Origin: Candidatus Nomurabacteria bacterium
GTDB taxonomy: Bacteria > Patescibacteriota > Patescibacteriia > HK-STAS-PATE-3
Length of the DNA: 64,000 nt
Direction of reading: 5' to 3'
NCBI GenBank assembly: GCA_023898465.1
Contig: CP060223.1
Span: 416,001 to 480,000 of the forward strand
The position numbers and the translations under genes are program-made. Numbering within the stretch: the first letter of the stretch is position 1; each line of letters opens with the position of its first letter. A model generated the notes under the pieces. That model was not told where the DNA came from, made no database searches, and was given only the letters and a program-made list of their open reading frames with translations. This document shows positions 18,645 to 64,000 of this stretch, in pieces.

Positions 18645-18724
18645 CTCTTGGTGAAGTATTGTTCAATCTGCTACACTAAATTTTGCTATACATACTGTAT
18701 CGTAAAGCCCCCAAACCGTCAAAG

Positions 18725-20082: not shown

Positions 20083-20832
20083 CTAGGCTCCATTCCAGGA
20101 GTGCTGAGGATTTTTTTTGCAATGGTCAGCTACTAACTGTCCCGCCTGAAGTAAGCTGTCGAAGGATTCTCCGCCATCGCCCCACCAACCACGAAGGATT
20201 TGGTAGCTCATAGTCCCCTGCTGTATGTAATGATTATTTACATCGGTGATTTCTAGCTCACCGCGAGCTGACGGCTGCAGGGTTTTGACGACTTCAAACA
20301 CACTACTATCATACATATATACACCAATCACAGCCAAATTAGACTTTGGCTCACTTGGCTTTTCTACTATTTGTACGAGCTTTTCTCCTTGAATTTCAGC
20401 AATGCCAAATGATTGAGGGTTTTCTACTTCTTTGAGGAAAATCTTTCCGCCCTTTTCTTGTGCTTCAAAGTCTTTTACTGCTTCTTGGATAGGATCTTCC
20501 AAAATGTTATCTCCTAGGATGACGGCCACCTTATCACCATCAGCAAAGTGCTCAGCCAAACCTAAAGCCTGAGCAATTCCACCGGCTTTTTCTTGAACTT
20601 CATAGGAAAGCCGCACTCCAAGCTCATCACCCGAGCCAAGTAGCTCTAAGAAATGACCAGCGTGTCCGCGTCCCGAAACAATCAAAATATTTGTCACTCC
20701 AGCTTGCTTCAGCGTAAGTATTGGATAATAAATCATTGGCTTGTTATACACTGCCAATAAGTGCTTATTTGTTACTTTGGTGAGTGGCGCAAGTCGACTA
20801 CCAGTTCCACCAGCTAAAATAATACCTTTCAT
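20083..20832 (-). CDS. sugar-phosphate nucleotidyltransferase, short RmlA-like (glucose-1-phosphate thymidylyltransferase family)
   Basis: 249 aa. The N-terminal MKGIILAGGTGSRLAPLTKVTNKHLL is the G-x-G-x-R-L nucleotidyltransferase motif. It is co-oriented and contiguous with rmlD and rmlB. Confidence 0.7.
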   Translation of the reverse strand: MKGIILAGGTGSRLAPLTKVTNKHLLAVYNKPMIYYPILTLKQAGVTNILIVSGRGHAGHFLELLGSGDELGVRLSYEVQEKAGGIAQALGLAEHFADGDKVAVILGDNILEDPIQEAVKDFEAQEKGGKIFLKEVENPQSFGIAEIQGEKLVQIVEKPSEPKSNLAVIGVYMYDSSVFEVVKTLQPSARGELEITDVNNHYIQQGTMSYQILRGWWGDGGESFDSLLQAGQLVADHCKKNPQHSWNGA

Positions 20833-20836
20833 GAGA

Positions 20837-21661
20837 TTATCCTTTCGTGGTCAAATACTCTTGTAAGGCTGCTTCCCAATGCCGCAGAGCAGGGGCTTTG
20901 GTATTTTGCAGTATAGAAATTTTTGGACGTTTGGCTAAGCGAGGAAAATCATTTGTGGCTATTGCCTCAACCGGCACATCAAGTTTTTTATAGGCAAATA
21001 TTTTCTTTGCAAAATCAAACCAAGTAGTGCTTCCACTATTTACCAAATGATAAATCCCAAATGGCGCTTGTTCTCGAACTAAGCGATAAGCTGCATCAGC
21101 TAAATCTTTTGCATAAGTTGGACAACCATGCTGATCATTCACCACACGTAAAACCCTCTTTTCTCGTGCTGCAGTTAACATCATATCTACAAAATTCTTT
21201 CCATTTCTCCCATAGAGCCATGAGGTACGGATCAAATAAAATCGCGTTGTGGCTTCTTGTAATAAACTTTCACCTTGCAGCTTCGTTCTCCCATAAGCGT
21301 TTAATGGGTTGGGAGTTTCGGTCTCAGTATATCCTCCGTCTTTTTCTCCATCAAACACATAATCAGTCGAAAAATGCATCATGACTGCACCAATATCAGC
21401 ACAAGAAGTTGCTATATACCCTACCGCATCTCCATTCACTTTATTAGCAACATCTTCGTGATTTTCACACTCATCAACAGCGGTATAGGCAGCGGCATTT
21501 ACCACTAAATCGGGTTTTAGCTTTTTGAGTTTTTTCTTTACATCATCAGCATCACTAATATCCAGGTCTTCTTTATCCCATAAGGTGCAAGTTTCCGCGG
21601 CGAACGCTCGTTGCAGCTCAAAACCAAGCATACCTTTGGCGCCAAGTATTAAGACCTTCAT
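20837..21661 (-). CDS. rmlD: dTDP-4-dehydrorhamnose reductase
   Basis: 274 aa. MKVLILGAKGMLGFEL Rossmann start, then YxxxK region (YGRTKLQGE), and an RmlD-like C-terminus. Confidence 0.85.
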   Translation of the reverse strand: MKVLILGAKGMLGFELQRAFAAETCTLWDKEDLDISDADDVKKKLKKLKPDLVVNAAAYTAVDECENHEDVANKVNGDAVGYIATSCADIGAVMMHFSTDYVFDGEKDGGYTETETPNPLNAYGRTKLQGESLLQEATTRFYLIRTSWLYGRNGKNFVDMMLTAAREKRVLRVVNDQHGCPTYAKDLADAAYRLVREQAPFGIYHLVNSGSTTWFDFAKKIFAYKKLDVPVEAIATNDFPRLAKRPKISILQNTKAPALRHWEAALQEYLTTKG

Positions 21662-22677
21662 GCTGAGTCTCCTTTAGTATCTCCGTACTGCTTGGCGTAG
21701 TACTCTTGATATTCGCCTGATTTCAGTGGGCGCCACCAGGCTTCATTCTTTTTGTACCACTCTACTGTTTCTTGAATGCCGTCCTGAAAAGTATAGCTTG
21801 GCTTCCAGCCGAGATTTCTCAATTTTTCACTATTTAAGGCATAGCGCAGATCATGACCTGGACGATCTTTTACCCGCTCAATACTTTCCTCACCCTTTCC
21901 TAGCTGCTTCAATAACTCAGAGGTAAGTTCAAGATTTGTGATGCGCTCTCCGGAACCGATATTATATGATTGACCTAAGTCGCCTTTCCGTAATACTAAA
22001 TCTACCGCGCGAGAATGATCGCGTACAAAAAGCCATTCACGAACATTTTTCCCATCCCCATACAGCGGAACCTTTTTACCCTCAAGTAAATTGGTAATAA
22101 AAAGCGGAATCACTTTTTCGGGATAATGATGCCACCCATAATTATTTGTTGCGTGTGTGATAAGTACTGGCGTCTCGTAGGTATGCCAATACGCCATTAT
22201 AAGATGTTCGGCAGCGGCTTTTGAGGCTGAATACGGACTCGTAGGTCGGAAAGGATATTCTTCACTTGCTTCCCCCTCAGCCAGACTGCCAAAAACCTCA
22301 TCTGTTGATATATGCAAGAAACGGGAAACTTTTGATGCACGCATTGCTTCAAGTAGCACGTGTGTACCCATGACATCGGTGCGAAGGAAGGCCTCTGGAT
22401 CATGGATTGAACGATCCACATGTGTTTCTGCAGCATAATTTACTATCACGTCGGGCTGAAAGTCTTGTATTGCCTTCTTTACTGCAAGCGCATCACAAAT
22501 ATCAGCCTGTACAAAATGATAGCGTGAATTATCAGCTACACTCGCTAAATTAGCTAAATTGCCGGCGTATGTGAGTTTATCATAATTTAGCACCTCATCT
22601 TCTGGATGTTCTGACAGCACAAATCGGATAAAATCCGACCCCATAAAACCAGCCCCTCCGGTCACCAATATACGCAT
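21658..22677 (-). CDS. rmlB: dTDP-glucose 4,6-dehydratase
   Basis: 339 aa. MRILVTGGAGFMGSDF, an STDEV(F)G catalytic block and YSASKAA. It overlaps rmlD by 4 nt. Confidence 0.9.
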   Translation of the reverse strand: MRILVTGGAGFMGSDFIRFVLSEHPEDEVLNYDKLTYAGNLANLASVADNSRYHFVQADICDALAVKKAIQDFQPDVIVNYAAETHVDRSIHDPEAFLRTDVMGTHVLLEAMRASKVSRFLHISTDEVFGSLAEGEASEEYPFRPTSPYSASKAAAEHLIMAYWHTYETPVLITHATNNYGWHHYPEKVIPLFITNLLEGKKVPLYGDGKNVREWLFVRDHSRAVDLVLRKGDLGQSYNIGSGERITNLELTSELLKQLGKGEESIERVKDRPGHDLRYALNSEKLRNLGWKPSYTFQDGIQETVEWYKKNEAWWRPLKSGEYQEYYAKQYGDTKGDSA

Positions 22678-42502: not shown

Positions 42503-42505
42503 GGG

Positions 42506-44284: not shown

Positions 44285-44320
44285 CTTGGAGGGGCTATTC
44301 CAGCATACATCGCACTTTCA

Positions 44321-44357
44321 CGCGCCTTCAGGCCAGCAACTTGGAGGCGCGTTTTTC
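44321..44357 (+). terminator. putative rho-independent terminator ending island 2
   Basis: Stem cgcgcct/aggcgcg (7 bp) with a 17-nt loop, followed by TTTTTC. Confidence 0.35.
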
Positions 44358-44424
44358 TTACTTTTCAAAATGACCAATTTTTAGTATACTCTAGCCTGAA
44401 CTTTTATCCTTTTTTTGCCAAAAA

Positions 44425-50151: not shown

Positions 50152-50152
50152 C

Positions 50153-51031: not shown

Positions 51032-51032
51032 T

Positions 51033-52823
51033 ATGAAAGAAATTCTACAGAAGCTTCAGGTGATTTTGCCACCAGGTGATAAGAAAAAAATCTTTGGCAT
51101 TTTTGTTTTAATGCTCATTGCAGCGATTTTAGAAGTTATCGGGATTAGTCTAATTCTTGCATTCATTTCAACGGTTTCTAATCCTGATACTCTTTTTCAA
51201 ATCACCTGGCTTGCCCCAATACTACAACGTGCAAATATTACGGATGCAAAAGGCTTACTTACCTACGGGTCGATTCTTCTCATTGTGCTCTTTGTTTTAA
51301 AAAATGCCTATATTATTTCGTTTCAGTATATCCAATCGCATTTCGTTTATCGCAGATTCAGCGCAATATCATCTCGGCTCTTTAATTCATACATGCGGGC
51401 GCCTTATATTTATCACCTTAATAATAATTCAGCTCGCCTTGTGCGTAATGTAACTGGAGAAACCACCTTACTCGTACACTACATCATGCTCCCCTTGCTG
51501 GTGGTGGTCATGGAATCAATCATGATCATTAGTATTAGTATCTTTCTTTTTGCGGTTGAGCCACTCAATACACTCATAGTGCTTTTCTTTGTCGGATCAA
51601 GTGGTATTTTTTTCCTTCGCTTAGTCAAAAAAAAGATTCAACACTTCGGATCTGAATCTCTGATTGAACGAGAAACTATGATTCGTCGCGTGAATGAAGG
51701 TGTTGGTGGTATAAAGGAAATACTCGTAAAGAATCGACAATCTTGGTTTATTAATGCGTTTACTCAATCGATCCATACTTACGCTAAAGCTGAAACATAC
51801 AAAAACATTTTTAAGATGAGCGCCCGGCCCGTTATTGAAACCGTTGCGGTGGCAGGCATGCTTTTAGTCGCCTTAGTACTCGTGTGGCAAGGACGTGGTG
51901 TAGAGTCGATCTTACCAGTACTAAGTCTCTTCGGCGTTGCCACATTTAAACTTATGCCCTCTTTAGATAAGGTTGTGAGTAATAGTAATGTGATTCGTTA
52001 TTACACTTATACGCTAAACTCAATCCATGATGATATTGCTGAGTTGAGTAAAATTGAAACTCCAATACACACAAACTCTGACAATAAAAAGATTTCCATC
52101 TCATCGACCTTAAGTCTTCAAAAGGTATATTTTCGCTACCCAGGCAGTGAGAAACAAGTGCTGCAAGATGTTAGTCTCACTATTCCAAAAGGTGCGGCAA
52201 TCGGATTTGTTGGCCCTTCTGGAGCTGGAAAAAGCACCATAGTGGATATTATCCTCGGACTACTGTCAATTGATTCGGGGCAAATCCTCGTTGATGGAAA
52301 AGATATAAAAAATACTATGGCAGCCTGGCAAAAAAATATCGGCTATATCCCGCAAACTATTTTCCTGGCTGATAATACTATTCGTAATAATATCGCCTTC
52401 GGACTAAACGACAATGAAATTAATGATGCACAGGTTTCTCGTGCTATTAAAATGGCACAGCTAGAAGAGTTCATTGCCTCCCTACCGCAAGGAGTGAACA
52501 CAATGGTTGGTGAACGAGGTGTTCGCTTAAGCGGTGGACAGAGACAGCGCATCGGTATTGCCCGAGCGCTTTATCATGACCCAGAGGTCTTAGTAATGGA
52601 TGAGGCGACATCCTCGCTTGATAATCAAACTGAAAAATATATTATTGATGCAATTGAAAACCTCAAACGGGATAGAACCATTATCATCGTGGCGCATCGT
52701 CTCAGTACAGTAGAGAATTGTGATAACTTGTTTTTCATCGAAAAAGGACACATAAAAGATTCTGGGACTTACTCACATATCATTCAACAAAACAGCGAGT
52801 TACTCGTAAATGAAAAAAGGTAA
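51033..52823 (+). CDS. ABC exporter, fused 6-TM permease plus ATPase (MsbA/PglK-like type I exporter)
   Basis: 596 aa. Six N-terminal TM helices, Walker A GPSGAGKST, signature LSGGQRQRIGIARAL and Walker B LVMDEATS. Confidence 0.85.
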   Translation: MKEILQKLQVILPPGDKKKIFGIFVLMLIAAILEVIGISLILAFISTVSNPDTLFQITWLAPILQRANITDAKGLLTYGSILLIVLFVLKNAYIISFQYIQSHFVYRRFSAISSRLFNSYMRAPYIYHLNNNSARLVRNVTGETTLLVHYIMLPLLVVVMESIMIISISIFLFAVEPLNTLIVLFFVGSSGIFFLRLVKKKIQHFGSESLIERETMIRRVNEGVGGIKEILVKNRQSWFINAFTQSIHTYAKAETYKNIFKMSARPVIETVAVAGMLLVALVLVWQGRGVESILPVLSLFGVATFKLMPSLDKVVSNSNVIRYYTYTLNSIHDDIAELSKIETPIHTNSDNKKISISSTLSLQKVYFRYPGSEKQVLQDVSLTIPKGAAIGFVGPSGAGKSTIVDIILGLLSIDSGQILVDGKDIKNTMAAWQKNIGYIPQTIFLADNTIRNNIAFGLNDNEINDAQVSRAIKMAQLEEFIASLPQGVNTMVGERGVRLSGGQRQRIGIARALYHDPEVLVMDEATSSLDNQTEKYIIDAIENLKRDRTIIIVAHRLSTVENCDNLFFIEKGHIKDSGTYSHIIQQNSELLVNEKR

Positions 52824-52827
52824 GAAT

Positions 52828-53904
52828 ATGAACACATTTAATGAAGAGTTAAATATATCAATAAAAAAGAATTTTCCTAATAATTATCAAGATAATGTTC
52901 TTCAAATACGGTTTAAAAAAAAGAAATTCAAAGTCTGGTTATTAGAAATATTATCGGATTTCACATACAGAATTGGATTGTTCAATCTAATTCTCAAAAG
53001 AAAAAAAATACTAATCGACAGTTTTCATTATCTTTATGATCGACTTAGCGACGACTATTCTAGAGAACTGTTAATACAAGTACTCACGTTCAGATTGTTG
53101 GGAAGTCGTAAAGTAAAGCTCCCGCTAAATGACGGTAACTACTTTAAGAGGATTGAAGACATTGAAAAAAGCGTTGCTAATAAAGACGATTTTCTCTCAC
53201 CAAACTTTTTAGACTGGAAATTATTTTTGTTTGATCTTGAGCAATATGGATATAAGGGAAAAGCATACTCGATAAGCCCAAGCATTTTTAGTAGCTTTGT
53301 ACAGCCGCAATACCAATATAATGGCACACTTATTGCAGCTAAGCCAGGCGACGTTGTTATTGATGCTGGAGCGTGTTGGGGCGAAACGGCTATGTATTTC
53401 GCTGAAAGGGTTAAAGAAAATGGAAAAGTGTACAGTTTTGAATTCCTACCTGAAAACCTCGAGGTAATGAGAAAAAACCTTTCTCTAAACCCAGAATATG
53501 CAAAACAAATTACCATGGTGGAAAAACCCGTATGGTCGAAAAGCAACGAGCCTATAACCTGCAACAACCTTGGTCCAGGAAACAAAGTTATTACTGGTGT
53601 AGATGAAGCATCAACTACTTATCATACAATCTCAATTGATGATTTTGCTGAACAAAATACACTTGAAAACGTTAACTTTATTAAAATGGATATAGAGGGA
53701 TCAGAGCTCGAGGCATTAAAAGGTGCTGAAAATGTAATAAAAAAATTTCGGCCTGTGTTGTCTATTTGCGTCTACCATAAACCAAGTGATTGCAAGCACA
53801 TTCCTGCCTATATTGAAAGCTTAAACTTGGGCTATAAGTTTTATTTTGACCACTATTCAATCTACGGTGAAGAAAGTGTACTCTTTGCGAAAGTCGAAAA
53901 CTAA
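52828..53904 (+). CDS. FkbM-family methyltransferase (second copy)
   Basis: DAGACWGETAMYFAE glycine-rich SAM motif and FIKMDIEGSE. The start is taken at the ATG after the ABC gene stop. Confidence 0.65.
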   Translation: MNTFNEELNISIKKNFPNNYQDNVLQIRFKKKKFKVWLLEILSDFTYRIGLFNLILKRKKILIDSFHYLYDRLSDDYSRELLIQVLTFRLLGSRKVKLPLNDGNYFKRIEDIEKSVANKDDFLSPNFLDWKLFLFDLEQYGYKGKAYSISPSIFSSFVQPQYQYNGTLIAAKPGDVVIDAGACWGETAMYFAERVKENGKVYSFEFLPENLEVMRKNLSLNPEYAKQITMVEKPVWSKSNEPITCNNLGPGNKVITGVDEASTTYHTISIDDFAEQNTLENVNFIKMDIEGSELEALKGAENVIKKFRPVLSICVYHKPSDCKHIPAYIESLNLGYKFYFDHYSIYGEESVLFAKVEN

Positions 53905-53905
53905 T

Positions 53906-55033
53906 ATGCAGAGCTCAAACCAACAACCAATTTATGTAACTAAACCAGCACTCCCGCCACTTGAAGAATTTACTGCTGAGCTAAAAACGATATGGGAGAA
54001 TCGAGTGCTAACAAATAATGGACCATTCCATCAACAATTTGAACTAGCCCTCGCTAAACATCTGGATGTTCCATTTGTATCTGTATTTAGCAATGGAACA
54101 CTTGCTTTGATGACTGCACTGCAATCACTTGATATCCAAGGTGAAGTTATTACTACCCCATTTAGCTTTGTCGCAACAACGCATGCACTTTGGTGGAACA
54201 AAATAACTCCAATATTTGCTGATATTGAATCAACTCATTTTACACTTGATCCTAATAAAACTGAGGAACTTATTACACCTCAAACAAGCGCGATCATGCC
54301 TGTGCACATTTATGGTTACCCATGCAGGACAAAGGAAATCGACATGATAGCAAAAAAGCATAATCTCAAGGTCATTTACGACGCCGCCCACGCCTTTGAT
54401 GTGAAGCAAGATGGTATTTCTGTATTAAATGCTGGCGACCTTTCTGTCCTAAGCTTTCATGCGACGAAAGTTTTTAATACAATTGAGGGTGGTGCGATCA
54501 TTTCCCATAGTGAAGAAATGAAAAATAGGATTGATCACCTAAAAAACTTTGGCTTTGAAGATGAGACAATAATAATTGGTCCCGGCATTAATGCCAAAAT
54601 GAACGAAGTGCAAGCTGCATATGGACTACTTCAACTAAAATATGTTGCTAAATATATAGAAGCCAGAAAAAGAATTGTAGAAAAATATCGTCTAGCACTA
54701 TCTGATATACCTGGCTTGCATTTCTTAGAAGACCAGGAAGGCGTACAAAATAATTACGCCTACTTCCCGATTGTTATTGATACAGAACATTGTATTCATA
54801 CGCGAGATTATATTTATGAGGAATTAAAAAAAGACAATATTTTTTCTCGTAGATATTTTTATCCACTCATAAGTAAAATTCCACTCTACGAAAATCTGGC
54901 GACAACTAAAGCAGCGCAGCTTCCGGTTGCATCTAAAATTAGCGAACAGGTTCTTTGTCTACCCTTATACCATGATTTAAGTGATAGTGATTTTACACGC
55001 ATCATTAGCAGTCTTAAAAGAATGCTTACATAG
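53906..55033 (+). CDS. DegT/DnrJ/EryC1/StrS-family PLP-dependent sugar aminotransferase
   Basis: Start at ATG 53906 (MQSSNQQPIYVTKP). The conserved SFHATK Schiff-base lysine block and the overall fold-type I pattern. Confidence 0.85.
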   Translation: MQSSNQQPIYVTKPALPPLEEFTAELKTIWENRVLTNNGPFHQQFELALAKHLDVPFVSVFSNGTLALMTALQSLDIQGEVITTPFSFVATTHALWWNKITPIFADIESTHFTLDPNKTEELITPQTSAIMPVHIYGYPCRTKEIDMIAKKHNLKVIYDAAHAFDVKQDGISVLNAGDLSVLSFHATKVFNTIEGGAIISHSEEMKNRIDHLKNFGFEDETIIIGPGINAKMNEVQAAYGLLQLKYVAKYIEARKRIVEKYRLALSDIPGLHFLEDQEGVQNNYAYFPIVIDTEHCIHTRDYIYEELKKDNIFSRRYFYPLISKIPLYENLATTKAAQLPVASKISEQVLCLPLYHDLSDSDFTRIISSLKRMLT

Positions 55034-55045
55034 GAATCCATTCAG

Positions 55046-55747
55046 ATGAAAATAGCAATCATGCAGCCCTATTTTTTCCCTTATATCGGATATTTTCAGC
55101 TGATGAATGCTGTAGATGAATTTGTGGTTTACGACAACATTCAATATACCAAGAAGGGGTGGATCAATCGTAACCGTATCCTCCTCAATGGAAAAATTGA
55201 AACTATTTCTCTAGCGATAAAGAAAGATTCTGATTATCTCGATATACGCGACCGTTGCTTAGCTGATAATTGGATAAAGGAACGAAGTAGTATATTAAAC
55301 AGACTCAAATCCTCTTATCAGAAAGCCCCTTACTTCATTCCTACATATACTCTGGTTGAAAAGATACTCAAACAAGATTCGGTCAATCTTTTTGAATTTC
55401 TTTTTAACAGCCTGCAACTCATCAAAGAATATCTCCACATCCCCACCCCTCTTATCATTTCCTCTCAGGTTCCAGTCGACCATACGCTAAAATCAAGCGA
55501 GCGCGTATTGGCTATTTGCAAAGCACTCCAAGCAAATCAATATATTAATCCAATTGGTGGAACAGAATTATATACAAAAGAGCATTTCCTTAAAAATGGC
55601 GTTGCGCTCCAATTTCTCCGAACTCAAGCACATCATTACCAACAGTTTAATAAAGAACATGTACCCTATCTCTCTATTATAGATGTTATGATGTTTAATA
55701 GTCAGGAAGCGCTAAAGGACTTACTCCAAGAATACATTCTCGAATAA
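55046..55747 (+). CDS. WbqC-family protein (uncharacterised glycan-modification family)
   Basis: 233 aa starting MKIAIMQPYFFPYIGYFQLM, the hallmark N-terminus of WbqC-like proteins found in O-antigen/capsule loci. Confidence 0.75.
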   Translation: MKIAIMQPYFFPYIGYFQLMNAVDEFVVYDNIQYTKKGWINRNRILLNGKIETISLAIKKDSDYLDIRDRCLADNWIKERSSILNRLKSSYQKAPYFIPTYTLVEKILKQDSVNLFEFLFNSLQLIKEYLHIPTPLIISSQVPVDHTLKSSERVLAICKALQANQYINPIGGTELYTKEHFLKNGVALQFLRTQAHHYQQFNKEHVPYLSIIDVMMFNSQEALKDLLQEYILE

Positions 55748-55756
55748 TAATCCCAT

Positions 55757-57061
55757 ATGCCCGCTCAAATAGATAAAAAAATTCGCGTACTCCTCTTCCC
55801 GGCTGGCTCAGAAATTGCTTTTGAAATTTATCACTCGCTTCGTCATAACCTCCACGTAGAAATATTTGGAGCTTCGGGAAAGTCTGATCACGCGAGCTAC
55901 TTATATGATTCCGAGCATTACTTCGAGGGTCCATATCAAATCTCCGACGAAAAATTTAATGACCACTTCACCGAGTTATTAAAAGAGCAAAAAATCGATA
56001 TGGTCATGCCAACACATGACTCAGTAACTGAATTTTTGGCAAAACACCGGGATAAATATCCAGCAAAAATTTTGACTTCTCCATACGAAAGCACAAGGAT
56101 AGCTCGACAGAAGATCCTCACCTACGAGCTTTTTCAAGCTTATGATTTCCTGCCAAAGCAGTATTTACCGCCATATCAGAATCTTGAGTATCCTATTTTC
56201 CTCAAGCCAAATCAGGGACAAGGCGGGAAAGGCACTTGTTTAGTTCATACATATGAAGAGCTGCAGGAACAAACCAGTAAGCAACCTGACTTAGTTGCTT
56301 ACGAATATTTACCAGGCGAGGAGCTGAGTGTTGATTGTTTTACCGATCGACATGGCCAGTTGCGTTTTATTGGACCAAGGACTAGAGCAAGAATTGATTT
56401 TGGCATTTCCTTTAGGACAGAGTCTCGTCCGGTCACTCAGGATATTCAGACAATTGCCGAAACAATAAATACAAAGGTTGCTATTCGAGGCGCGTGGTTT
56501 TTTCAAGTAAAAAAAGATAGCACAGGTAAATATAAACTCATGGAATTTGCAGTTCGCCAGGCAAGTACTATGGGTCTTTATCGTCAAATTGGAGTTAATT
56601 TTGCCTTACTCACGATATTCGACGCGCTCGACATCGATGTAAAGATTCTAAAAAATGACTATCCTATCACGCTTGATCGCAGAATGCTAAACCGATATAA
56701 AGCTGATTTCACTTACACAAAAGTATACATTGATTTCGATGATACAATTATCATCAATGAAAAAATTAACATTATCGCACTGCAGTTTCTCTATCAATGT
56801 AAATATGCTCATAAGAAAATTTGTCTTCTCACAAAACATGAGTTCGATCTCGATGAGACATTACAGAAATACTGCCTTGCAAAAAATCTATTTGACGAGA
56901 TTGTGATTTTACATCCTGGAGAGGACAAGACTGATCACATCGTTGCCGACGATGCAATTTTTATTGATAACTACTTTTTTGATAGAGAAAAAGTAAAGCA
57001 GCGTCACAATATTCCTGTATTTGATGTAGACGCCATCGAGAGTTTATTACTTAATACATAA
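55757..57061 (+). CDS. ATP-grasp ligase fused to a C-terminal HAD-like domain
   Basis: An N-terminal about 300 aa ATP-grasp pattern (IFLKPNQGQGGKGTCLV...AYEYLPGEELSVDCF). The C-terminal about 130 aa begins with HAD motif I (VYIDFDDTII). Confidence 0.6.
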   Translation: MPAQIDKKIRVLLFPAGSEIAFEIYHSLRHNLHVEIFGASGKSDHASYLYDSEHYFEGPYQISDEKFNDHFTELLKEQKIDMVMPTHDSVTEFLAKHRDKYPAKILTSPYESTRIARQKILTYELFQAYDFLPKQYLPPYQNLEYPIFLKPNQGQGGKGTCLVHTYEELQEQTSKQPDLVAYEYLPGEELSVDCFTDRHGQLRFIGPRTRARIDFGISFRTESRPVTQDIQTIAETINTKVAIRGAWFFQVKKDSTGKYKLMEFAVRQASTMGLYRQIGVNFALLTIFDALDIDVKILKNDYPITLDRRMLNRYKADFTYTKVYIDFDDTIIINEKINIIALQFLYQCKYAHKKICLLTKHEFDLDETLQKYCLAKNLFDEIVILHPGEDKTDHIVADDAIFIDNYFFDREKVKQRHNIPVFDVDAIESLLLNT

Positions 57062-57064
57062 GGC

Positions 57065-58030
57065 ATGTTCCGCTGGAAGAAACTAGGAAAAGTATTTGAC
57101 CCAACACAAAACGGAAATGATGCGTGGATGCAGACTTTTGCTCAAGCTCCTGCCACTTTAGTTTTTGATTCTTTTGTTCGAGTATATTTTTCTTGTCGGC
57201 CACTTCCGGACAAAAATGGTCAAGCGACAAGCTATGCCGGCTTTGTTGATCTTGATCGAAAAAACCTTTTTAATATTCTTAGGATCTCAAAAAAACCCGT
57301 GCTTCCGCTTGGAGAAATTGGTAGTTTTGACGAGTTTGGTATTATGCCCATCTCAGTCATTCGAGATAAGCATCGATTACTCGCTTACTATGGCGGATGG
57401 ACTCGATGCGTTTCCGTTCCATTCAATATCGCTATTGGTCTGGCTGAAAGTAAGGACAATGGGGAAACTTTTGAAAAAATTGGCCCTGGACCCGTACTCT
57501 CGTATAGCCCTGATGAGCCGTTCTTAGTTGCGGTTCCTAAAATTAGGAAATTTCAAAATCGCTGGTTTCTCTGGTATACCGCCGGGACTCATTGGAGAAA
57601 AGTAAATGGAAAGACTGAGGCGGTTTATGGCATCCGGATGGCTACATCAACTGACGGCGTTACATGGAAAAAAGAGCATCGAAAAATTATTCCAAACGTT
57701 TTAGGTGAGAACGAGGCGCAAGCAAGCGCTGACGTTTATTTTGCTAACGACATCTATCACATGTTTTTTTGCTATCGGCATACTTCTGATTTTCGTACAA
57801 ATAAAGATCGGGCTTATCGGATTGGCTATGCTTACTCTCAGGATGGATTTCATTGGCAGCGTGACGATTCACGGGTAGGCATCGACATATCGACTGAAGG
57901 ATGGGATTCAGAAATGATCTCTTTTCCTCATATTTTTTCACTGGACGGAAAAACCTACATGCTCTACTTGGGAAATAACTTTGGTCGAGAAGGGTTTGGA
58001 ATTGCTGAACTTGAAGGGAGTTTACAATAA
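57065..58030 (+). CDS. five-bladed beta-propeller glycosidase-fold protein (GH43/GH32/GH130-like), tandem paralog 1
   Basis: 321 aa, rich in Trp/Asp/Gly. It starts M-x-W-K-K-L-G-K-V-F-D-P and ends GNNFGREGFGIAEL. It is a clear paralog of the next ORF. Confidence 0.5.
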   Translation: MFRWKKLGKVFDPTQNGNDAWMQTFAQAPATLVFDSFVRVYFSCRPLPDKNGQATSYAGFVDLDRKNLFNILRISKKPVLPLGEIGSFDEFGIMPISVIRDKHRLLAYYGGWTRCVSVPFNIAIGLAESKDNGETFEKIGPGPVLSYSPDEPFLVAVPKIRKFQNRWFLWYTAGTHWRKVNGKTEAVYGIRMATSTDGVTWKKEHRKIIPNVLGENEAQASADVYFANDIYHMFFCYRHTSDFRTNKDRAYRIGYAYSQDGFHWQRDDSRVGIDISTEGWDSEMISFPHIFSLDGKTYMLYLGNNFGREGFGIAELEGSLQ

Positions 58031-58031
58031 T

Positions 58032-58985
58032 ATGCACTGGGAAAAACTCGGAAAAATTTTTGATCCGTCCCAACACAATCTTCCAAACGATTGCAAGCTT
58101 TTCGCGCAATCGCCTCAGGTGTTACTTTTGGACGACCGAATACGGATATATTTTTCTACCCGACAAGCAGATACACCCACAACCTACCTCAGTCATATTG
58201 CTTATGTCGATTTTACAAATGACTTTTCTAAAGTACTTGAAGTCTCAAAAAAAACCGTACTTCCTTTAGGGAAACTTGGCACCTTTGATGAACACGGCAT
58301 CTTTCCAATGAATGTCTTAAGGTTTCAAGATCGAGTACTAGGGTTCACAAGCGGCATTTCTCGTAGATCTTCTGTATCAGTGGAAACATCTATTGGCCTG
58401 GTGGAAAGCTTTGATAACGGAGAAAGCTTTCAGCGAAATAGTGATGGCCCTATCCTTACCTCCTCTCTTCATGAGCCATTTATGGTAGGCGATCCTTTTG
58501 TCCAAGCATACGAAGGAAAACTTCATATGTGGTACATCAACGGAGTACGATGGAAACCAAAAACAGCCCAGGAACCTGCTGCACGAGTATACAAAATTGC
58601 TCATGCAACTTCCTTAGACGCCATACATTGGCAAAATGATAATCGTCAAATTATTAGTGACGTTCTCAATGCCGATGAGTGTCAGGCGCTTCCTACTGTA
58701 ATTAAAATTAAGCAAAGGTACTACATGTACTTTTGCTATCGCGAAGCCAGTGATTTTCGAACAAACAAAAATCGTGCGTATCGAATTGGATGCGCCTATT
58801 CGGATGACCTTACCCATTGGACTCGAGATGATGCCCAAGCTGGTATCACTGTTTCAGACCAGGGCTGGGATTCAGAAATGCAGTGCTACCCTCACGTCTT
58901 TCAAAAAGATGATGTAATATATTTACTTTATAATGGAAACGCCTTCGGCCGCGATGGTTTTGGCTTAGCTAAGCTTGTTGGATAA
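58032..58985 (+). CDS. five-bladed beta-propeller glycosidase-fold protein, tandem paralog 2
   Basis: Starts MHWEKLGKIFDPSQ and ends GNAFGRDGFGLAKL. The conserved internal blocks FRTNK(D/N)RAYRIG(Y/C)AYS.D..HW.RDD and WDSEM..(F/Y)PH(I/V)F are shared with paralog 1. Confidence 0.5.
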   Translation: MHWEKLGKIFDPSQHNLPNDCKLFAQSPQVLLLDDRIRIYFSTRQADTPTTYLSHIAYVDFTNDFSKVLEVSKKTVLPLGKLGTFDEHGIFPMNVLRFQDRVLGFTSGISRRSSVSVETSIGLVESFDNGESFQRNSDGPILTSSLHEPFMVGDPFVQAYEGKLHMWYINGVRWKPKTAQEPAARVYKIAHATSLDAIHWQNDNRQIISDVLNADECQALPTVIKIKQRYYMYFCYREASDFRTNKNRAYRIGCAYSDDLTHWTRDDAQAGITVSDQGWDSEMQCYPHVFQKDDVIYLLYNGNAFGRDGFGLAKLVG

Positions 58986-58990
58986 TACCT

Positions 58991-59938
58991 ATGAATTCTG
59001 ATTCTCCTCTCGTCAGTGTAGTATGCGTCACATACAATCATGGTCCATATATTGCAGAAGCAATAGAAAGTTTTTTACAGCAAGAAACTGACTTCCCTTT
59101 TGAAATTATCATTGGAGAAGACTTCAGTACAGACGAAACCAGGGAAATTTGCTTGGAATATGCAAAAAAGTACCCTGATAAAATCCACCTAGCGATTTCT
59201 GATGGAAATGTCGGGGCACGTAATAATTATTTTCGCGCTTTGTCAGCCGCACGAGGAAAATATATTGCATTTTGTGAAGGAGATGATTACTGGTCGGATC
59301 CAAAAAAGTTGGCAATCCAAATTGGCTACATGGAAAAACATCCAGAGTGCAGTCTCACCTTCCACTCGGTTCGAATTATCAACGGAGATAAAGCAACCAA
59401 TAAGACGATTCGTCCCTTTAACAAAAAAACAATTATTCCAAAAAATACCTTTTTTGGCTACGGCACGATGGCACCATCCCCCACTCTTGTGTATCCCAGA
59501 AAATATATTATAGACCCACCTGATTGGCTTCGTCACTCGCCTGTTGGGGATATACCCTTGAAGCTCTATCTCTCTCAACTTGGTACAGTAGTATATCTGG
59601 ATAAAATCATGGCCATGCGAAGAATTGGCGTCGAGGGTTCGTGGAGTAAACGCATGCAAACTTTTTCATACCGACAAAAACTCTTTCCAGGTATGATTGT
59701 AATGCTTGAAGGTTTTAACGAATTTAGTAAATATATATATGCCTATCAAGTACTAAAAAAACAGCTAAGCTACGAAATTAAAAGTGTGAAAAATCCAATA
59801 ACAAAAGTAAGACAAATGCTAAAACTCATCCGAACAAAATATTCAAAATCGTACTCTTCTCTTTCGCTTACAAAAAAAATGTTTGCAATTGGTAATCTAT
59901 TTATCACAAGCATAGTTGAACAGGTAGCACGTCGTTAG
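58991..59938 (+). CDS. GT2 glycosyltransferase (GT-A)
   Basis: 315 aa. VSVVCVTYNHGPYIAEAIESFL...EIIIGEDFSTDET, and a DxD-like region (CEGDDYW). Confidence 0.8.
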   Translation: MNSDSPLVSVVCVTYNHGPYIAEAIESFLQQETDFPFEIIIGEDFSTDETREICLEYAKKYPDKIHLAISDGNVGARNNYFRALSAARGKYIAFCEGDDYWSDPKKLAIQIGYMEKHPECSLTFHSVRIINGDKATNKTIRPFNKKTIIPKNTFFGYGTMAPSPTLVYPRKYIIDPPDWLRHSPVGDIPLKLYLSQLGTVVYLDKIMAMRRIGVEGSWSKRMQTFSYRQKLFPGMIVMLEGFNEFSKYIYAYQVLKKQLSYEIKSVKNPITKVRQMLKLIRTKYSKSYSSLSLTKKMFAIGNLFITSIVEQVARR

Positions 59939-59940
59939 CC

Positions 59941-60831
59941 ATGGAACCCACTACATATCCAAACAGCCCGGTGTTCTTAATAGGCTCCCCGCGCAGTGGA
60001 AAAACAATACTGCACACCTTACTTGCGCAAGGTAATGACTTCGCCTGGTTTTCCCAATACTCAAGCAAATTTTATACTCATACTTGGCCGGCTTATTTAC
60101 CACGTATATATCAAATTCCATGGCTGGGAAGATATTTACAAAAACATGCTCGTTTACGCATACTCCCCCACCCTGAAGAAATTTCTCACAAGTTTATTCC
60201 AATAATGACTCAGTACGGTTCACTTGAGCAAACTCATGTGAATGAAGCAAATCAAAAAAAACTGCAGCACTGGGTGAGAAAACAAATGCAAGCGCAGAAA
60301 AAAAATCGTATGCTCATTGACTGCGGCCGACCTGCTCGCATATCTTTTTATCACAAAGTCTTTCCTGAGGCAAAATTTATTCACCTTATCAGAGATGGGC
60401 GCGCAGTAGCAGTTGAAATGCTCCGTAGTTACCCTTATATGTTTACTGAAAAAAGTAGTATTGATAGTTATTTTATCCAGACGCCCGAGGAATTTAAAAA
60501 CTACTTACCTAAAAAAAGCGATGATCCATCTCGACCTCTCATTTTAGCCGCCCTGTACTGGAAAATGTCTGTTCGTGAAATTGAGCGGCAAGCCAACCCA
60601 CTTGGAGAGGATGTTTTATCCATCCGATTTGAGGATATTCTCCAAAATCCTACTTCGGAGCTAGAAAAAATCTGTCGCTTTGTGGAATCGGCAAACTCTG
60701 CTAAAATCATCAAGTCTGCTAAGGTTCAGCGATTTCAGTATAAGGATGCCTCCCAGCTCATGGACAAGCAAGGCTACGAGAAATTGACCCATATACTGCA
60801 TGACGAGCTAAAAAACTATGGCTACATTTAA
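59941..60831 (+). CDS. PAPS-dependent sulfotransferase-family protein
   Basis: 296 aa. The 5'-PSB-like P-loop GSPRSGKTILHTLL near the N-terminus and the 3'-PB-like HLIRDGRAVAVEM. Confidence 0.65.
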   Translation: MEPTTYPNSPVFLIGSPRSGKTILHTLLAQGNDFAWFSQYSSKFYTHTWPAYLPRIYQIPWLGRYLQKHARLRILPHPEEISHKFIPIMTQYGSLEQTHVNEANQKKLQHWVRKQMQAQKKNRMLIDCGRPARISFYHKVFPEAKFIHLIRDGRAVAVEMLRSYPYMFTEKSSIDSYFIQTPEEFKNYLPKKSDDPSRPLILAALYWKMSVREIERQANPLGEDVLSIRFEDILQNPTSELEKICRFVESANSAKIIKSAKVQRFQYKDASQLMDKQGYEKLTHILHDELKNYGYI

Positions 60832-60858
60832 CCATTTAGTATTCAGAAAAGTAAGCAT

Positions 60859-61575
60859 ATGATGGATCTCGATATACTTAAGAAACGTGCTGATGATCGC
60901 TGGTTTGTAGTGGATCGATCAAAAGGCAAAAGGGTCTTAGAAATCGGTTGCGTAAACCATACTATTGAAGGAATTGAGGAGCAGCGCAGGATTGGCACTT
61001 GGCTTTTTGATTATCTCCACGTGTATGGAACTCATGCTACTGGTATTGATATTGACCAACCAGCAATTGACCATTTAGCCAAACAGGGCTACGACATCCG
61101 GTATGGAGATGGGCAAGATTTTAATCTGAACGAAGAGTTTGAAGTTATTATTGCATCAAAAGTAATTGATCATCTTACCAATATTGATGGTTTCCTAAAA
61201 AGCTGTAAAAAGCATCTCTCTCCCGACGGTAAACTCATTATCACTGATGACAACATTCTCTGCGTTCCTCAGCTCCTGACATGGTATGCAAAGAAAAATG
61301 TTGGACATCCTGACGATGATATAACTGTAAAAATTATTCCGGAGTACTTCCGCCTCTTTGTGAGGCGCTATGGCTTTGAGGTCGAAGAAATACATTATGT
61401 AGTTGGCACAGGAAATTCTTTTCTCTTCAAGCTGTTCCGTTTCATAAAAAAAATAATGCCAAAGCGCCTAGTACATGAACCGCTTTTTTATCCAAACTAC
61501 ATCATTCAATTACGTCATCGTACGAATGAAGAGAGCGAGAAGGGTGCTACTGCACATCACTCGCATCAGCACTAG
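60859..61575 (+). CDS. class I SAM-dependent methyltransferase
   Basis: 238 aa. VLEIGCVNH (motif I, G-x-G-like), then acidic motif II (DIR), then VIIASKVIDHL (motif III). Confidence 0.6.
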   Translation: MMDLDILKKRADDRWFVVDRSKGKRVLEIGCVNHTIEGIEEQRRIGTWLFDYLHVYGTHATGIDIDQPAIDHLAKQGYDIRYGDGQDFNLNEEFEVIIASKVIDHLTNIDGFLKSCKKHLSPDGKLIITDDNILCVPQLLTWYAKKNVGHPDDDITVKIIPEYFRLFVRRYGFEVEEIHYVVGTGNSFLFKLFRFIKKIMPKRLVHEPLFYPNYIIQLRHRTNEESEKGATAHHSHQH

Positions 61576-63958
61576 GCGGATCAATGATCTCGTAAACACT
61601 TACACCCTGTACCGATCCAATTGCTTGAAAGTATTTTGATGGATCAATTTTGGTGTTGAGATTCTCTTCATTTTCATCATAGTACTCCACATCTTCGTAA
61701 AGCTTAGAGAGGATCAAATCGGAACGATCTGTAGCTATTTTGTCGGTGGAATCAGTGAAGAGATAGAGTAAAGAGATAAAGTTATTTTGACCTTTGGTGT
61801 CTATAAAAGTACTTAGGTGGTATTTTTCCATTGCTCCAGGAAAACCTAAATCGCTAATATCCTTCCTGAGACTTTCCAATTCTGCTTGATTCGAAATCGC
61901 ACTTAGCTGCACAAATGGCTGGTGTGTATATAAATAAAGCACACGGTATTCTGAAGAATATGTCATGGCCTTACTGTTAGCGTCGCTATTCTTCAATATT
62001 ACGTCTCGTATGGCCTGCACTTCGAGTTGAGATAACTTACTTTGAAGAAAGTACTCTGGTGTAGGATTTAAAGTAAGCCCCATAGTTAATAATATGAGTG
62101 TAAATGTTGCTATAGTGCTCTTCTTTGATAAGACGAGGTTCTTCTCAATTTGATACAAAACACCGCCCACAAAAAGAACCATGGTCAAAACAAAAATATG
62201 ATTATAATACCATGCAAAGCGAATTGACTTTGAAGCCAGGATTAAAAAAATAAATGAAGTAAAGAAGAAAGTGAGGAGTATATAAAATTTCTTGCGGGGT
62301 AGAAACCAAAATGTACCTAAAGAGATAAAAAATACAAAGCTGATAAAGGGTGTACTCATATACCGAACTCTATCAAACAATTGTAGATAGAAATCCACGT
62401 TTAAGAGCAACGATGTATCTGTTAGGAATTCACCACCAAGAGCTTGTAGGGACTTTCGCAAAAAGAAAAGAGAGAGTAGTAGAAAAAATGCCCCAGTAGA
62501 AATAAGGCTTGTCCGCCAAACTTTTTTGTTTCTTTGCAGCAAACGAAGTGCCTTAGTAAATGGATATTTAAGAACCAGATAAATACCTAAAACTAGTAAT
62601 AGGAATACCACAAGCATAGTAATATTTCTCCCCCACTCATCAGCATGTGCCGGCAAGCTGCGGAGAAAAAGGGTAAAGAAAATATACGGAGAAAAGCTTG
62701 CTAATGCCAACTTAATTAAATGCAACATCTTTTCCTTTTCGAGGAAGAGTACGAGTAAAGCAAGAAGTGGACCGCCTATTACGACAAACGATAACTTACA
62801 TAAGAAGGCAAAACCAAGGATGATGAAAGAGGCGTCTCTTTTCCCGTAAAGGTATAAATTAACTGAGCAAAGCAAAAAACATAGTGCTGTTGCATCAAGT
62901 GTTGTGGTCCAAGTCAATAAATTAAAAACTGGAGTAAGTGAAAAAATGTACGTAAGTGCAATTGCTACAAGAGGTGAAAAAAGTCGTCTGGTTAATAAAA
63001 ATATGCTTCCTAAAATAAAGGAGCCAACAATAGTAAGATATATACGAACAATTGACTCATCGCTAAAATATGACCTCAAACTAAAGAATGGAGCAAGGGT
63101 CCACTCAAGTACCGGCATACGCCAAAATGTACCGTACTCCTGATCTTCAGCACTTCCAAAAATTCCTGCGTAAGCGGGGTTTCTGAATACAAATGGATTT
63201 TTTGCTTCATACATTTCTTGAGCAACTGGCACATAGCTCACATATTTTCCAGGGTGAAGTTTAATAAAAAACGAGTCATGGAAATATGGGACTCGAATTG
63301 CAAAATAATTCAACAGAATTAATGCCAACAAAAAAATGGATAAAACGTTCTTTTTACGAAAAAGTATGAACAATGTAGGAAGCAAAGGGATGCGACTAAA
63401 ACGGGAATGGCTAAAACGAATTTTTCTATACAGCTTTTCACTACTGTCTTCATCGTGGGCTGCCACATCTTCGATTTTGCGTTCACGATATATCACTTTA
63501 TTATTTAATATAAGCCAAATGAAGAATAATAGAGCCGTACTGTACAAGACTGCACTTACGGGCGTATTTAATATAGTCACAAAAATTCCACGCTGCTGTG
63601 TAAAGGTTGCCACAAGCGATATAATCAAAACAGCCAACAAAACAATCCCGTAATGAAGTGATGGGATTTGCATTTTTTCAAGACTTTTTTCTCTACGAAG
63701 TCTATTTGTGAAAGTAAAAAGCAAGGCGAGCGTCAACACAAGCACAAAGAAGCTTAAATAAGCGCTCACATCGGTACTTTGTATCAAGACCCTCTCTATG
63801 TGGACAGCGCTCCATACGTTTACCCAAATTGCGAGTGCTATTAACAAAGTAAATGATATCTTTCTTCTTAAAGTGTCCCGTATTCCTTGATAGGCAAAAA
63901 GAATCAAGATACTAAGGAAAATATTAATTTGTAAAAAACGCAAAGATAATTCGATCAT
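61547..63958 (-). CDS. large polytopic membrane protein with C-terminal extracytoplasmic domain, unknown (possibly GT-C/YfhO-like)
   Basis: 803 aa. More than 15 hydrophobic segments in the first about 620 aa and a soluble C-terminal about 180 aa. Convergent with the glycan cluster. Confidence 0.45.
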   Translation of the reverse strand: MIELSLRFLQINIFLSILILFAYQGIRDTLRRKISFTLLIALAIWVNVWSAVHIERVLIQSTDVSAYLSFFVLVLTLALLFTFTNRLRREKSLEKMQIPSLHYGIVLLAVLIISLVATFTQQRGIFVTILNTPVSAVLYSTALLFFIWLILNNKVIYRERKIEDVAAHDEDSSEKLYRKIRFSHSRFSRIPLLPTLFILFRKKNVLSIFLLALILLNYFAIRVPYFHDSFFIKLHPGKYVSYVPVAQEMYEAKNPFVFRNPAYAGIFGSAEDQEYGTFWRMPVLEWTLAPFFSLRSYFSDESIVRIYLTIVGSFILGSIFLLTRRLFSPLVAIALTYIFSLTPVFNLLTWTTTLDATALCFLLCSVNLYLYGKRDASFIILGFAFLCKLSFVVIGGPLLALLVLFLEKEKMLHLIKLALASFSPYIFFTLFLRSLPAHADEWGRNITMLVVFLLLVLGIYLVLKYPFTKALRLLQRNKKVWRTSLISTGAFFLLLSLFFLRKSLQALGGEFLTDTSLLLNVDFYLQLFDRVRYMSTPFISFVFFISLGTFWFLPRKKFYILLTFFFTSFIFLILASKSIRFAWYYNHIFVLTMVLFVGGVLYQIEKNLVLSKKSTIATFTLILLTMGLTLNPTPEYFLQSKLSQLEVQAIRDVILKNSDANSKAMTYSSEYRVLYLYTHQPFVQLSAISNQAELESLRKDISDLGFPGAMEKYHLSTFIDTKGQNNFISLLYLFTDSTDKIATDRSDLILSKLYEDVEYYDENEENLNTKIDPSKYFQAIGSVQGVSVYEIIDPPSADASDVQ

Positions 63959-64000
63959 CTCAATAGCCAGATCTCGATTCCAAAAGAAAACTAAACAAAT

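Follow-up and report, generated by a model that had tools for sequence, protein, structure and literature searches.

Paired five-bladed propeller proteins in a predicted viosamine cassette, from a Candidatus Nomurabacteria bacterium to the Enterobacteriaceae

The DNA analysed here, a stretch of 64,000 nucleotides from contig CP060223.1 of a Candidatus Nomurabacteria bacterium (hereafter the window), carries near its right end two adjacent genes for similar proteins, which we call A and B:

57065..58030, + strand: propeller A, a 321-residue cytoplasmic five-bladed beta-propeller; A clade of an uncharacterised family with a glycoside hydrolase (GH) fold
58032..58985, + strand: propeller B, a 317-residue paralog of A; B clade; fused to a GNAT domain in other genomes

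The genes lie on the same strand with a single base between them, and B starts at the ATG at 58032, preceded by a ribosome-binding-like motif (GAAGGGAG). A scan for promoters and terminators gave counts not above those of shuffled sequence. The two proteins share 45% identity along their entire length (E 3e-103), and no signal peptide or transmembrane segment is predicted in either. A first-pass annotation, made from the sequence alone, had described them as paralogs of about 320 amino acids that share a series of motif blocks. Size and kinship are as described there, and every block that it listed was found in both A and B.

The pairing of A and B is not peculiar to this bacterium. Relatives were sought in one genome per species; more than 570 were returned and 80 loci were kept. 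Locus statistics were taken over 82 non-redundant loci, and identities among A and B proteins were compared across 70 loci. B directly follows A in all 82 loci, with a median gap of 16 nucleotides. The hosts belong to more than a dozen phyla in all and include Alpha-, Beta- and Gammaproteobacteria, Myxococcota, Desulfobulbia, Campylobacterota, Bacteroidota, Verrucomicrobiota, Chlamydiota, Omnitrophota, Acidobacteriota, Gemmatimonadota, Chloroflexota, Actinomycetota and Bacillota. Mutual identity is at least 56% among A orthologs (median 69%) and at least 48% among B orthologs (median 62%), identity between an A and a B never exceeds 53%, and the clades fall cleanly apart. This separation makes the duplication older than all of the spread that was sampled. 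The term "tandem duplicated", applied at first pass, thus describes the side-by-side position of the paralogs correctly and is wrong as to a local event: the pair is ancient and orthologously conserved. Given their obligatory adjacency, A and B probably form a heteromer. They are also the best-conserved proteins of the gene cassette to which they belong, with median identities to the window proteins of 60% (A) and 58% (B), against 54% for the DegT aminotransferase and 52% for the WbqC protein.

A third, remoter propeller clade (25-38% identity) occurs in single copy and always adjoins an acetyltransferase of the VioB/NeuD type, whose fold is unlike that of GNAT. Its loci (L087, L088, L089, L090 and L092) lie on plasmids of Azospirillum, Ruegeria, Bernardetia, Peteryoungia and Rhizobium. 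The gene order is WbqC-(GT2 glycosyltransferase)-methyltransferase-VioB-like acetyltransferase-propeller-EamA, with an aminotransferase of the RffA/FdtB type; the Ruegeria propeller is accompanied by FdtA, a FemAB-family protein and a GT41 protein. The presence of RffA/FdtB-type aminotransferases and FdtA ties the family to 3- and 4-amino-6-deoxyhexoses generally.

In its canonical form the A/B cassette runs DegT aminotransferase-WbqC-A-B-GNAT (about 150 residues)-methyltransferase (about 248 residues). WbqC is present in 78 of the 82 loci and DegT in 74, and the pair lies inside nucleotide-sugar operons in every one of them. The surmise that the genes sit in a biosynthetic locus is thereby supported, and this setting, together with the lack of a signal peptide or transmembrane segment, also upholds the earlier doubt about a degradative role. 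The window contributes the following genes, among them those for deoxythymidine diphosphate (dTDP)-sugar synthesis:

20083..22677, - strand: rmlA (248 residues), rmlD (273 residues) and rmlB (338 residues); Pfam NTP_transferase, RmlD_sub_bind and dehydratase
53846..55033, + strand: VioA-like dTDP-4-keto-6-deoxyglucose 4-aminotransferase; DegT_DnrJ_EryC1 at 316 bits; probable start ATG 53906
55046..55747, + strand: WbqC-family protein (PF08889), predicted ATP-dependent ligase of amino acid (carboxylate) to amino sugar
55757..57061, + strand: ATP-grasp ligase (ATPgrasp_Ter type, by Pfam) with an extra 130-residue C-terminal domain; a window-specific insertion between WbqC and A

The aminotransferase is 53% identical over 365 residues to VioA of Escherichia coli O116 and 50% identical to the O121 enzyme; a curated model specific to VioA does not exist, on the DesI equivalog model the protein reaches 287 bits (cut-off 650), and the C4 stereochemistry of its product cannot be read from the sequence. 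The rml block, which E. coli RfbA and RfbB match at 44% and 43% identity (tblastn on the window), lies some 31 kb upstream of the aminotransferase gene and would supply dTDP-4-keto-6-deoxy-D-glucose, the predicted substrate of the VioA-like enzyme. Adjoining the rml genes is a gene for a 465-residue PEGA-domain protein with weak WD/propeller-like matches (18683-20080, + strand).

The WbqC protein matches PF08889 over its full length (residues 7-224 of 233; 232 bits against a cut-off of 21.3), and its model has a fold like that of BshC and class-I tRNA synthetases. A literature search returned WbqC in incidental gene lists only and no functional study of it. The ligase position varies between loci: an ATP-grasp ligase takes the place of WbqC in three of them (L045, L050 and L056), and a FemAB-family gene stands beside WbqC in the Ruegeria locus. 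Two loci carry a 3-hydroxyacyl-CoA dehydrogenase with a RimL-type GNAT, and two (L044 and L005) have, at the place equivalent to that of the window ATP-grasp gene, a short-chain dehydrogenase/reductase, an ATP-grasp protein and a separate metallophosphatase. The cassette methyltransferase of Buttiauxella (L078:10376-11113) has a near-identical structure in the PDB (2p7h/2p7i, E 1.8e-131), deposited only as "Hypothetical protein"; it is a cassette member with a structure and without an assigned function.

An AlphaFold2 model of A, built from 28 sequences (mean predicted local distance difference test score, pLDDT, 93; predicted template modelling score, pTM, 0.92), is all-beta, and its strand pattern is that of five blades of four strands. 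A fold of the GH43/32/130-like propeller class had been guessed, and the confident model of A agrees with that guess, down to the five blades of GH130. In a Foldseek search the model reached template modelling (TM) scores of 0.75 to GH137, the best match, and 0.70 to GH130; GH137, GH130, GH159, GH43, GH117 and GH32 matched nearly equally and no family stands out. The sequence profiles are no more selective. The Pfam GH130 model (PF04041) gives A 29.4 bits against a cut-off of 26, the best stretch placing residues 248-304 on model positions 64-118, and B 23.1 bits, under the cut-off. A also nominally passes Pfam GH32N, by a partial match (23.6 against 22.1), whereas Pfam GH43 reaches 15 bits against a cut-off of 32. 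The fact that A passes both GH130 and GH32N in this nominal way points to blade-level repeat matches rather than membership. The NCBIfam model for beta-1,2-mannobiose phosphorylase scores 50 bits on A and 36 on B against a cut-off of 450. Profile matches in the PDB align the C-terminal blades of A and B with the N-terminal blades of GH130, and hhalign places the GH130 N-terminal fragment one blade off, with 96.9% probability. For GH137, identity is 17-19%, the profile E-value of 8e-4 concerns the C-terminal half only, and the NCBIfam model scores 19 bits against a cut-off of 1800. Assignment to GH130/DUF377 accordingly fails, its Pfam and NCBIfam matches being partial, limited to one or two blades and out of register, and the profile and hhalign comparisons place the pair in none of GH130, GH43 and GH32. 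Assignment to a CAZy-type family by sequence was rejected, as the Pfam, NCBIfam and PDB profile matches are all marginal, partial or shifted by a blade.

A and B are a separate family within the five-bladed GH43/32/130/137 propeller superfamily. At 50% identity the family comprises 962 clusters if E is limited to 1e-30 and 3074 if the limit is 1e-10, nearly all of them stand-alone proteins of 300-325 residues. The names that members bear in public databases ("exo-alpha-sialidase", "glycosylase", "SacC GH32") are guesses, and the present analysis corrects them. Two long proteins met in a representative search, P0241 (5844 residues) and P0341 (1935 residues), hold 36 and 9 stretches, respectively, that match the A/B profile; they are tandem arrays of many propellers, of this family or a related one, and P0341 also has a strong GH130 match. 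The best-studied neighbours differ from A and B in their setting as well. The GH130 mannoside phosphorylases and GT108 enzymes (Teth514_1788, 9fj8; 7fip; Uhgb_MS, 9erg), among which the sequence match to GH130 is marginal and confined to one or two shifted or out-of-register blades, are homo-oligomers of mannan and mannoside metabolism, whereas A and B are an obligatory heterologous pair with partners in dTDP-amino-sugar synthesis. The GH137 domain of BT0996 (5mt2/5mui) is a secreted beta-L-arabinofuranosidase that degrades rhamnogalacturonan II pectin and is encoded in a polysaccharide-utilisation locus; A and B, in contrast, are cytoplasmic, belong to biosynthetic operons and are too distant in sequence for membership of that family. 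To our knowledge, few glycosidase-fold propellers take part in biosynthesis, namely GT108 and some GH130 enzymes.

The pattern of conservation gives some indication of the chemistry. Two acids alone, D89 and D268, never vary in any of the three clades (A, B and single-copy), and the basic and aromatic residues R39, R45, R238, R266, W177, W280, Y251, Y287 and Y301 are likewise constant. In A and B, R114, R244 and H289 are invariant as well, as are, at the starts of the blades' inner strands, D89 and E90, E151, E217 and Q219, and D281 and E283, with H289 in the last of these groups. The invariant Arg residues and H289 would be candidates for a phosphate-binding basic set like that of GH130, which makes 3-4 contacts. 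The position that in GH43, GH32 and GH68 holds the blade-1 Asp of the catalytic triad, as placed by strand and motif, is a Gln: Q27, in the motif FAQ(A/S)P, is present in more than 95% of A and B proteins, and the single-copy clade has S, T or Q there. D89 stands at the start of blade 2 in a G.FD(E/D).G motif and by that motif lines up with the EDPR-type motif of GH130, whose Asp is the proton donor; hhalign instead puts the GH130 fragment one blade on from D89, where the residues are GDP in B and SGP in A. Where the first-pass annotation had proposed to identify a catalytic Asp/Glu triad, the alignment shows one invariant central Asp (D89) and several Arg; by strand and motif position, no triad of the GH43/GH32 type was found. 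As far as can be judged from sequence, one Asp with several Arg appears closer to the GH130/GT108 phosphorylases and transferases than to the three-carboxylate hydrolases of GH43 and GH32. Near the predicted active-site face, A and B show fixed differences (F91/H88, C115/R112, G157/D154, K159/F156 and S221/L220, A before B), which suggest two non-equivalent sites. In GH130 enzymes that take guanosine diphosphate (GDP)-mannose, the nucleotide lies across the dimer interface (PMC12814180), and this would provide a rationale for the obligatory A/B pair.

One could envision A and B as true hydrolases, either trimming or editing a polymer or hydrolysing nucleotide-sugars or wrong intermediates, as in proof-reading or in the release of a free sugar by PseG and NeuC. 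Their nearest structural neighbours, GH130 phosphorylases aside, are indeed all glycoside hydrolases, and acids (D89, E90, E151, E217, D281 and E283) line the predicted centre of both proteins, as a set that the single-copy clade does not have. The Gln at the place of the blade-1 Asp and the reduction of the family-wide invariant acids to D89 and D268 speak for a different chemistry. Furthermore, lacking a signal peptide or transmembrane segment, the proteins could not reach a polymer once it is exported; destruction of an activated donor that downstream enzymes need would be wasteful; and the compact cassettes are without a kinase, a synthase or a re-activating enzyme. We consider hydrolysis decidedly unlikely.

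The GNAT protein of the cassette is nearest to N-alpha-acetyltransferases such as RimI, YpeA and Naa20/30/50. In about 50 clusters it is fused to B (455-484 residues, 44-81% identity to the query fusion P0252); the order of the domains is that of the separate genes, and A stays a separate gene upstream. These fusions, and the constant proximity of the single-copy propeller to an acetyltransferase, indicate that the propeller step and N-acetylation are coupled. They are difficult to square with A and B being amidases or deacylases analogous to ArnD, which would remove a transient N-acyl group from an amino sugar linked to dTDP or to undecaprenyl phosphate (Und-P), since a deacetylase fused to an acetyltransferase would be futile. 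In addition, no His or Cys is invariant throughout the family as a metal ligand, and among the partners of the cassette are soluble GT41 systems that lack an Und-P carrier. Rejected as a lead model because of the fusions and the missing metal ligands, the ArnD-like activity is in our view highly improbable.

The cassette is not bound to any one system of glycan transfer. Buttiauxella sp. B2 carries it between fliC and fliA, adjoining a 1150-residue methyltransferase-TPR-GT41 protein, and a paper on Dickeya zeae WH1 (PMC9650423) recorded the same insertion of seven genes between fliA and fliC but did not interpret it. In a Pseudobdellovibrionaceae genome, a soluble protein of the HMW1C/GT41-like kind and an autotransporter come after the cassette. 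The genes downstream of it in many Proteobacteria encode an ArnC/PgfS-like GT2, a second methyltransferase, GtrA or a small EamA protein and polytopic membrane proteins, an extension that is an Arn-like undecaprenyl-phosphate route. Bacteroidota and others combine it with Wzx or ABC-type O-antigen genes, and its sole companion on Rhizobium leguminosarum plasmids is one glycosyltransferase. On one of these plasmids (strain UPM791, pRlvE; L086:10346-11939) an IS3 transposase separates the aminotransferase gene from a truncated WbqC gene in an otherwise intact stand-alone cassette, which has probably lost its activity there. The cassette is thus coupled to at least four transfer systems of different kinds. 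As each of them brings its own transferase, A and B are unlikely to be the terminal transferase.

These findings tell against both roles suggested for the pair in the first-pass annotation. That A and B build a linkage in the polymer is unlikely, as the conserved pair travels with the precursor cassette across the transfer systems; that they trim the polymer is unlikely too, as the pair is cytoplasmic and tied to the VioA-WbqC precursor cassette rather than to one transfer system. Both models were rejected as leads on these grounds. The former idea amounts to A and B forming a GT108-like glycosyltransferase, dependent on a nucleoside diphosphate (NDP)-sugar or a sugar-1-phosphate, that places the finished viosamine derivative or another sugar on the growing glycan. 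The invariant central Asp, the invariant Arg residues and the cytoplasmic location are compatible with this activity. So are the B-GNAT fusions, whose layout recalls known fusions of acetyltransferases to glycosyltransferases; Mimivirus L142 is reportedly a precedent. Moreover, GH130/GT108 propellers can transfer from GDP-mannose (PMC12814180). However, A and B proteins remain 56-94% identical while the acceptor systems differ entirely (flagellin or autotransporter with GT41, Und-P with an ArnC-like GT2, O-antigen type), and transferases with different acceptors are normally not the best-conserved proteins of a cassette. The islands of Buttiauxella and Dickeya, furthermore, already contain a GT41 transferase. 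A role as glycosyltransferase therefore seems improbable to us.

Among the known systems closest to the cassette are the genes for Qui4N(N-acetylglycyl) of E. coli O121 and Shigella dysenteriae 7, which comprise the same VioA (50-53% identity), WbqC (37% between the window and O121 proteins) and GNAT (29%) in the same order and so indicate the product of the surrounding cassette. We take the N-acetylglycine of O121 to sit on Qui4N (viosamine). The O121 cluster reads rfbB-rfbA-VioA-WbqC-GNAT, with neither A/B nor the cassette methyltransferase, and a search for A/B homologs in E. coli serogroups with known O-antigen structures found none in O121 and O116. The O121 O unit contains amide-linked N-acetylglycine (PMC7685785). 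From this structure and the gene set we infer a succession in which VioA provides the amine, WbqC attaches the amino acid to it and GNAT acetylates the amino acid. As O121 does without A and B, the pair would add something beyond the O121-type sugar, in a step without a characterised counterpart.

The same comparison lends itself to another interpretation, namely that A and B are not catalytic and serve as a scaffold, which would bind the sugar-nucleotide and offer the intermediate to WbqC and GNAT, as part of a metabolon or as a specificity factor. The ability of O121 to manage without the pair would then suggest a modulatory contribution rather than an essential chemical step. The physical joining of B to GNAT in many genomes would suit a scaffold, as would the small size of ligases of the WbqC and BshC types, and BshC activity alone is hard to reconstitute. 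On the other hand, the residues predicted to face the funnel are extremely conserved in A and B, as is typical of active enzymes, and the retention of two paralogs with fixed differences (G157/D154, F91/H88, K159/F156 and C115/R112) suggests two distinct ligand sites. A purely structural role appears unlikely on balance.

The reading that we favour, with a confidence somewhat short of even, is that A and B are two subunits of a cytoplasmic enzyme, a core part of a mobile nucleotide-sugar precursor module, that acts on a dTDP-linked intermediate by non-hydrolytic chemistry; the heteromer, the substrate and the chemistry are what we infer here, in distinction to the fold, the pairing, the membership of the cassette, its independence from the transfer system and the B-GNAT fusion, which the data show. 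RmlA and RmlB would make dTDP-4-keto-6-deoxyglucose, from which the VioA-like aminotransferase would yield dTDP-viosamine (dTDP-Qui4N). WbqC, or in variants an ATP-grasp or FemAB-type enzyme, would then link an amino acid through an amide bond to the 4-amino group, and a GNAT of the N-alpha type and the methyltransferase would complete the acyl or sugar decoration. The step of A and B would fall on the dTDP-linked intermediate after aminoacylation and before N-alpha-acetylation. The likeliest mechanism would be GH130/GT108-like and non-hydrolytic, with the central Asp as general acid/base and the ring of Arg holding the phosphates, so that A and B might add or rearrange a group on the nucleotide-sugar and leave the donor intact. 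The finished sugar would be handed to the host's own transferase system, which in the window may consist of GT2 and GT4 enzymes, a PglK-like exporter and a GT-C enzyme. It is tempting to go further and to propose a heterodimer with an undescribed reaction on dTDP-linked N-aminoacyl-viosamine, for example one that glycosylates or elaborates the nucleotide-sugar or the aminoacyl side chain; this more specific proposal is doubtful, with a chance that we would still call appreciable.

Several observations weigh against a catalytic heteromer of this kind. E. coli O121 apparently completes N-acetyl-aminoacyl-viosamine without A and B, which leaves the step that they add undefined. An attack on the anomeric carbon, as in GH130, is hard to reconcile with the need of downstream enzymes for an intact NDP-sugar; this difficulty calls for a second donor, for chemistry at another site of the molecule or for an accessory role to be weighed, and the compact cassettes encode no second sugar pathway. 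The active-site residues were placed by DSSP strand positions and motifs only. Obligatory adjacency is the sole argument for the heteromer, and the net charges and isoelectric points of A and B show no complementarity that would hint at a heterodimer. Finally, the literature searched (WbqC; viosamine with propeller; five-bladed with dTDP) yielded no biochemical or genetic test of A or B.

The favoured role of A and B in precursor synthesis invites comparison with two further systems. In Pseudomonas syringae, a viosamine island (vioA, vioB, vioM, vioR, vioS, acp and vioT) provides flagellin with an N-acylated, methylated viosamine (PMC3927599, PMC4622738), and the position of the A/B cassette between fliC and fliA in Buttiauxella and Dickeya is reminiscent of that flagellin island. 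There, however, the acyl group comes from fatty-acid-type enzymes, and the published gene lists contain no propeller or WbqC (PMC3927599, PMC4622738); in the A/B cassette it would come from WbqC or ATP-grasp together with GNAT. The extended cassettes resemble the Arn system (PmrHFIJKLM) in having an aminotransferase, an N-acyltransferase, an ArnC-like GT2 (138 bits to the ArnC model), EamA or GtrA and a PMT_2/GT-C protein. They differ from it in that their sugar is a dTDP-6-deoxyhexose and not uridine diphosphate-4-amino-4-deoxy-arabinose (UDP-Ara4N), in the additional WbqC, methyltransferase and A/B, and in not being bound to the Und-P route.

A and B are the only unexplained component of the cassette for a decorated viosamine, a rare amino sugar, and yet its best-conserved one. 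Solving their reaction would complete the pathway of a common and unrecognised surface sugar, found in flagellin islands, on adhesins, in Und-P-linked decoration and in glycans of the Candidate Phyla Radiation (CPR), and would give WbqC its first tested function. Such a solution would probably also bring a new family, and possibly a new type of reaction, into the catalogue of carbohydrate-active enzymes. Should the heterodimer with an undescribed reaction prove real, it would establish such a family and define a very widespread new bacterial sugar, borne by flagellins, adhesins and O-antigen-like glycans in hosts that range from the CPR to the Enterobacteriaceae.

The window has its own version of the cassette, made up of WbqC, ATP-grasp, A and B; the canonical GNAT and methyltransferase are absent at that position. 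Its ATP-grasp protein is only weakly similar to those encoded at the equivalent place in L044 and L050. The C-terminal domain of this protein (residues about 305-434) contains a DFDDT motif reminiscent of HAD phosphatases and has no significant match in Pfam or the PDB; an identity as HAD phosphatase, for which the motif is the sole basis, was not upheld. With the separate metallophosphatase that L044 and L005 have there beside a dehydrogenase/reductase and an ATP-grasp protein, a theme of "ligase plus phosphatase" recurs. The pair is surrounded by GT2 and GT4 enzymes, FkbM methyltransferases and the following genes:

51033..52823, + strand: PglK/MsbA-like ABC exporter; NCBIfam PglK at 342 bits, under its cut-off; Pfam ABC_tran and ABC_membrane
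58991..59938, + strand: GT2 glycosyltransferase (TuaG/EpsE-like), directly downstream of B
59941-60831, + strand: Sulfotransfer_3/Sulfotransfer_1 family protein, two genes downstream of B
61547..63958, - strand: PMT_2 (GT-C-like) polytopic membrane glycosyltransferase of 803 residues; weak PMT_2 match

The sulfotransferase near B suggests a sulfated surface glycan in this CPR bacterium. The gene for the 803-residue PMT_2 protein converges on the operon, and a homolog with 45% identity flanks the nearest related locus, L044. No tRNA genes and no Rfam families at the gathering threshold were found in the window. The GC content of the glycan locus (48000-64000) is 0.36-0.40, against 0.41-0.47 in most of the window, and two stretches, at 24-26 kb and 40-44 kb, are GC-rich (0.50-0.53); these differences may mark horizontally acquired segments. 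Three large open reading frames at 40979-45936 (+ strand) encode proteins of 507, 592 and 503 residues, the middle one alone with a Peptidase_M23 match; the first two lie inside the GC-rich 40-44 kb stretch just upstream of the glycan locus, and the third lies beyond it, at a GC content of 0.44.

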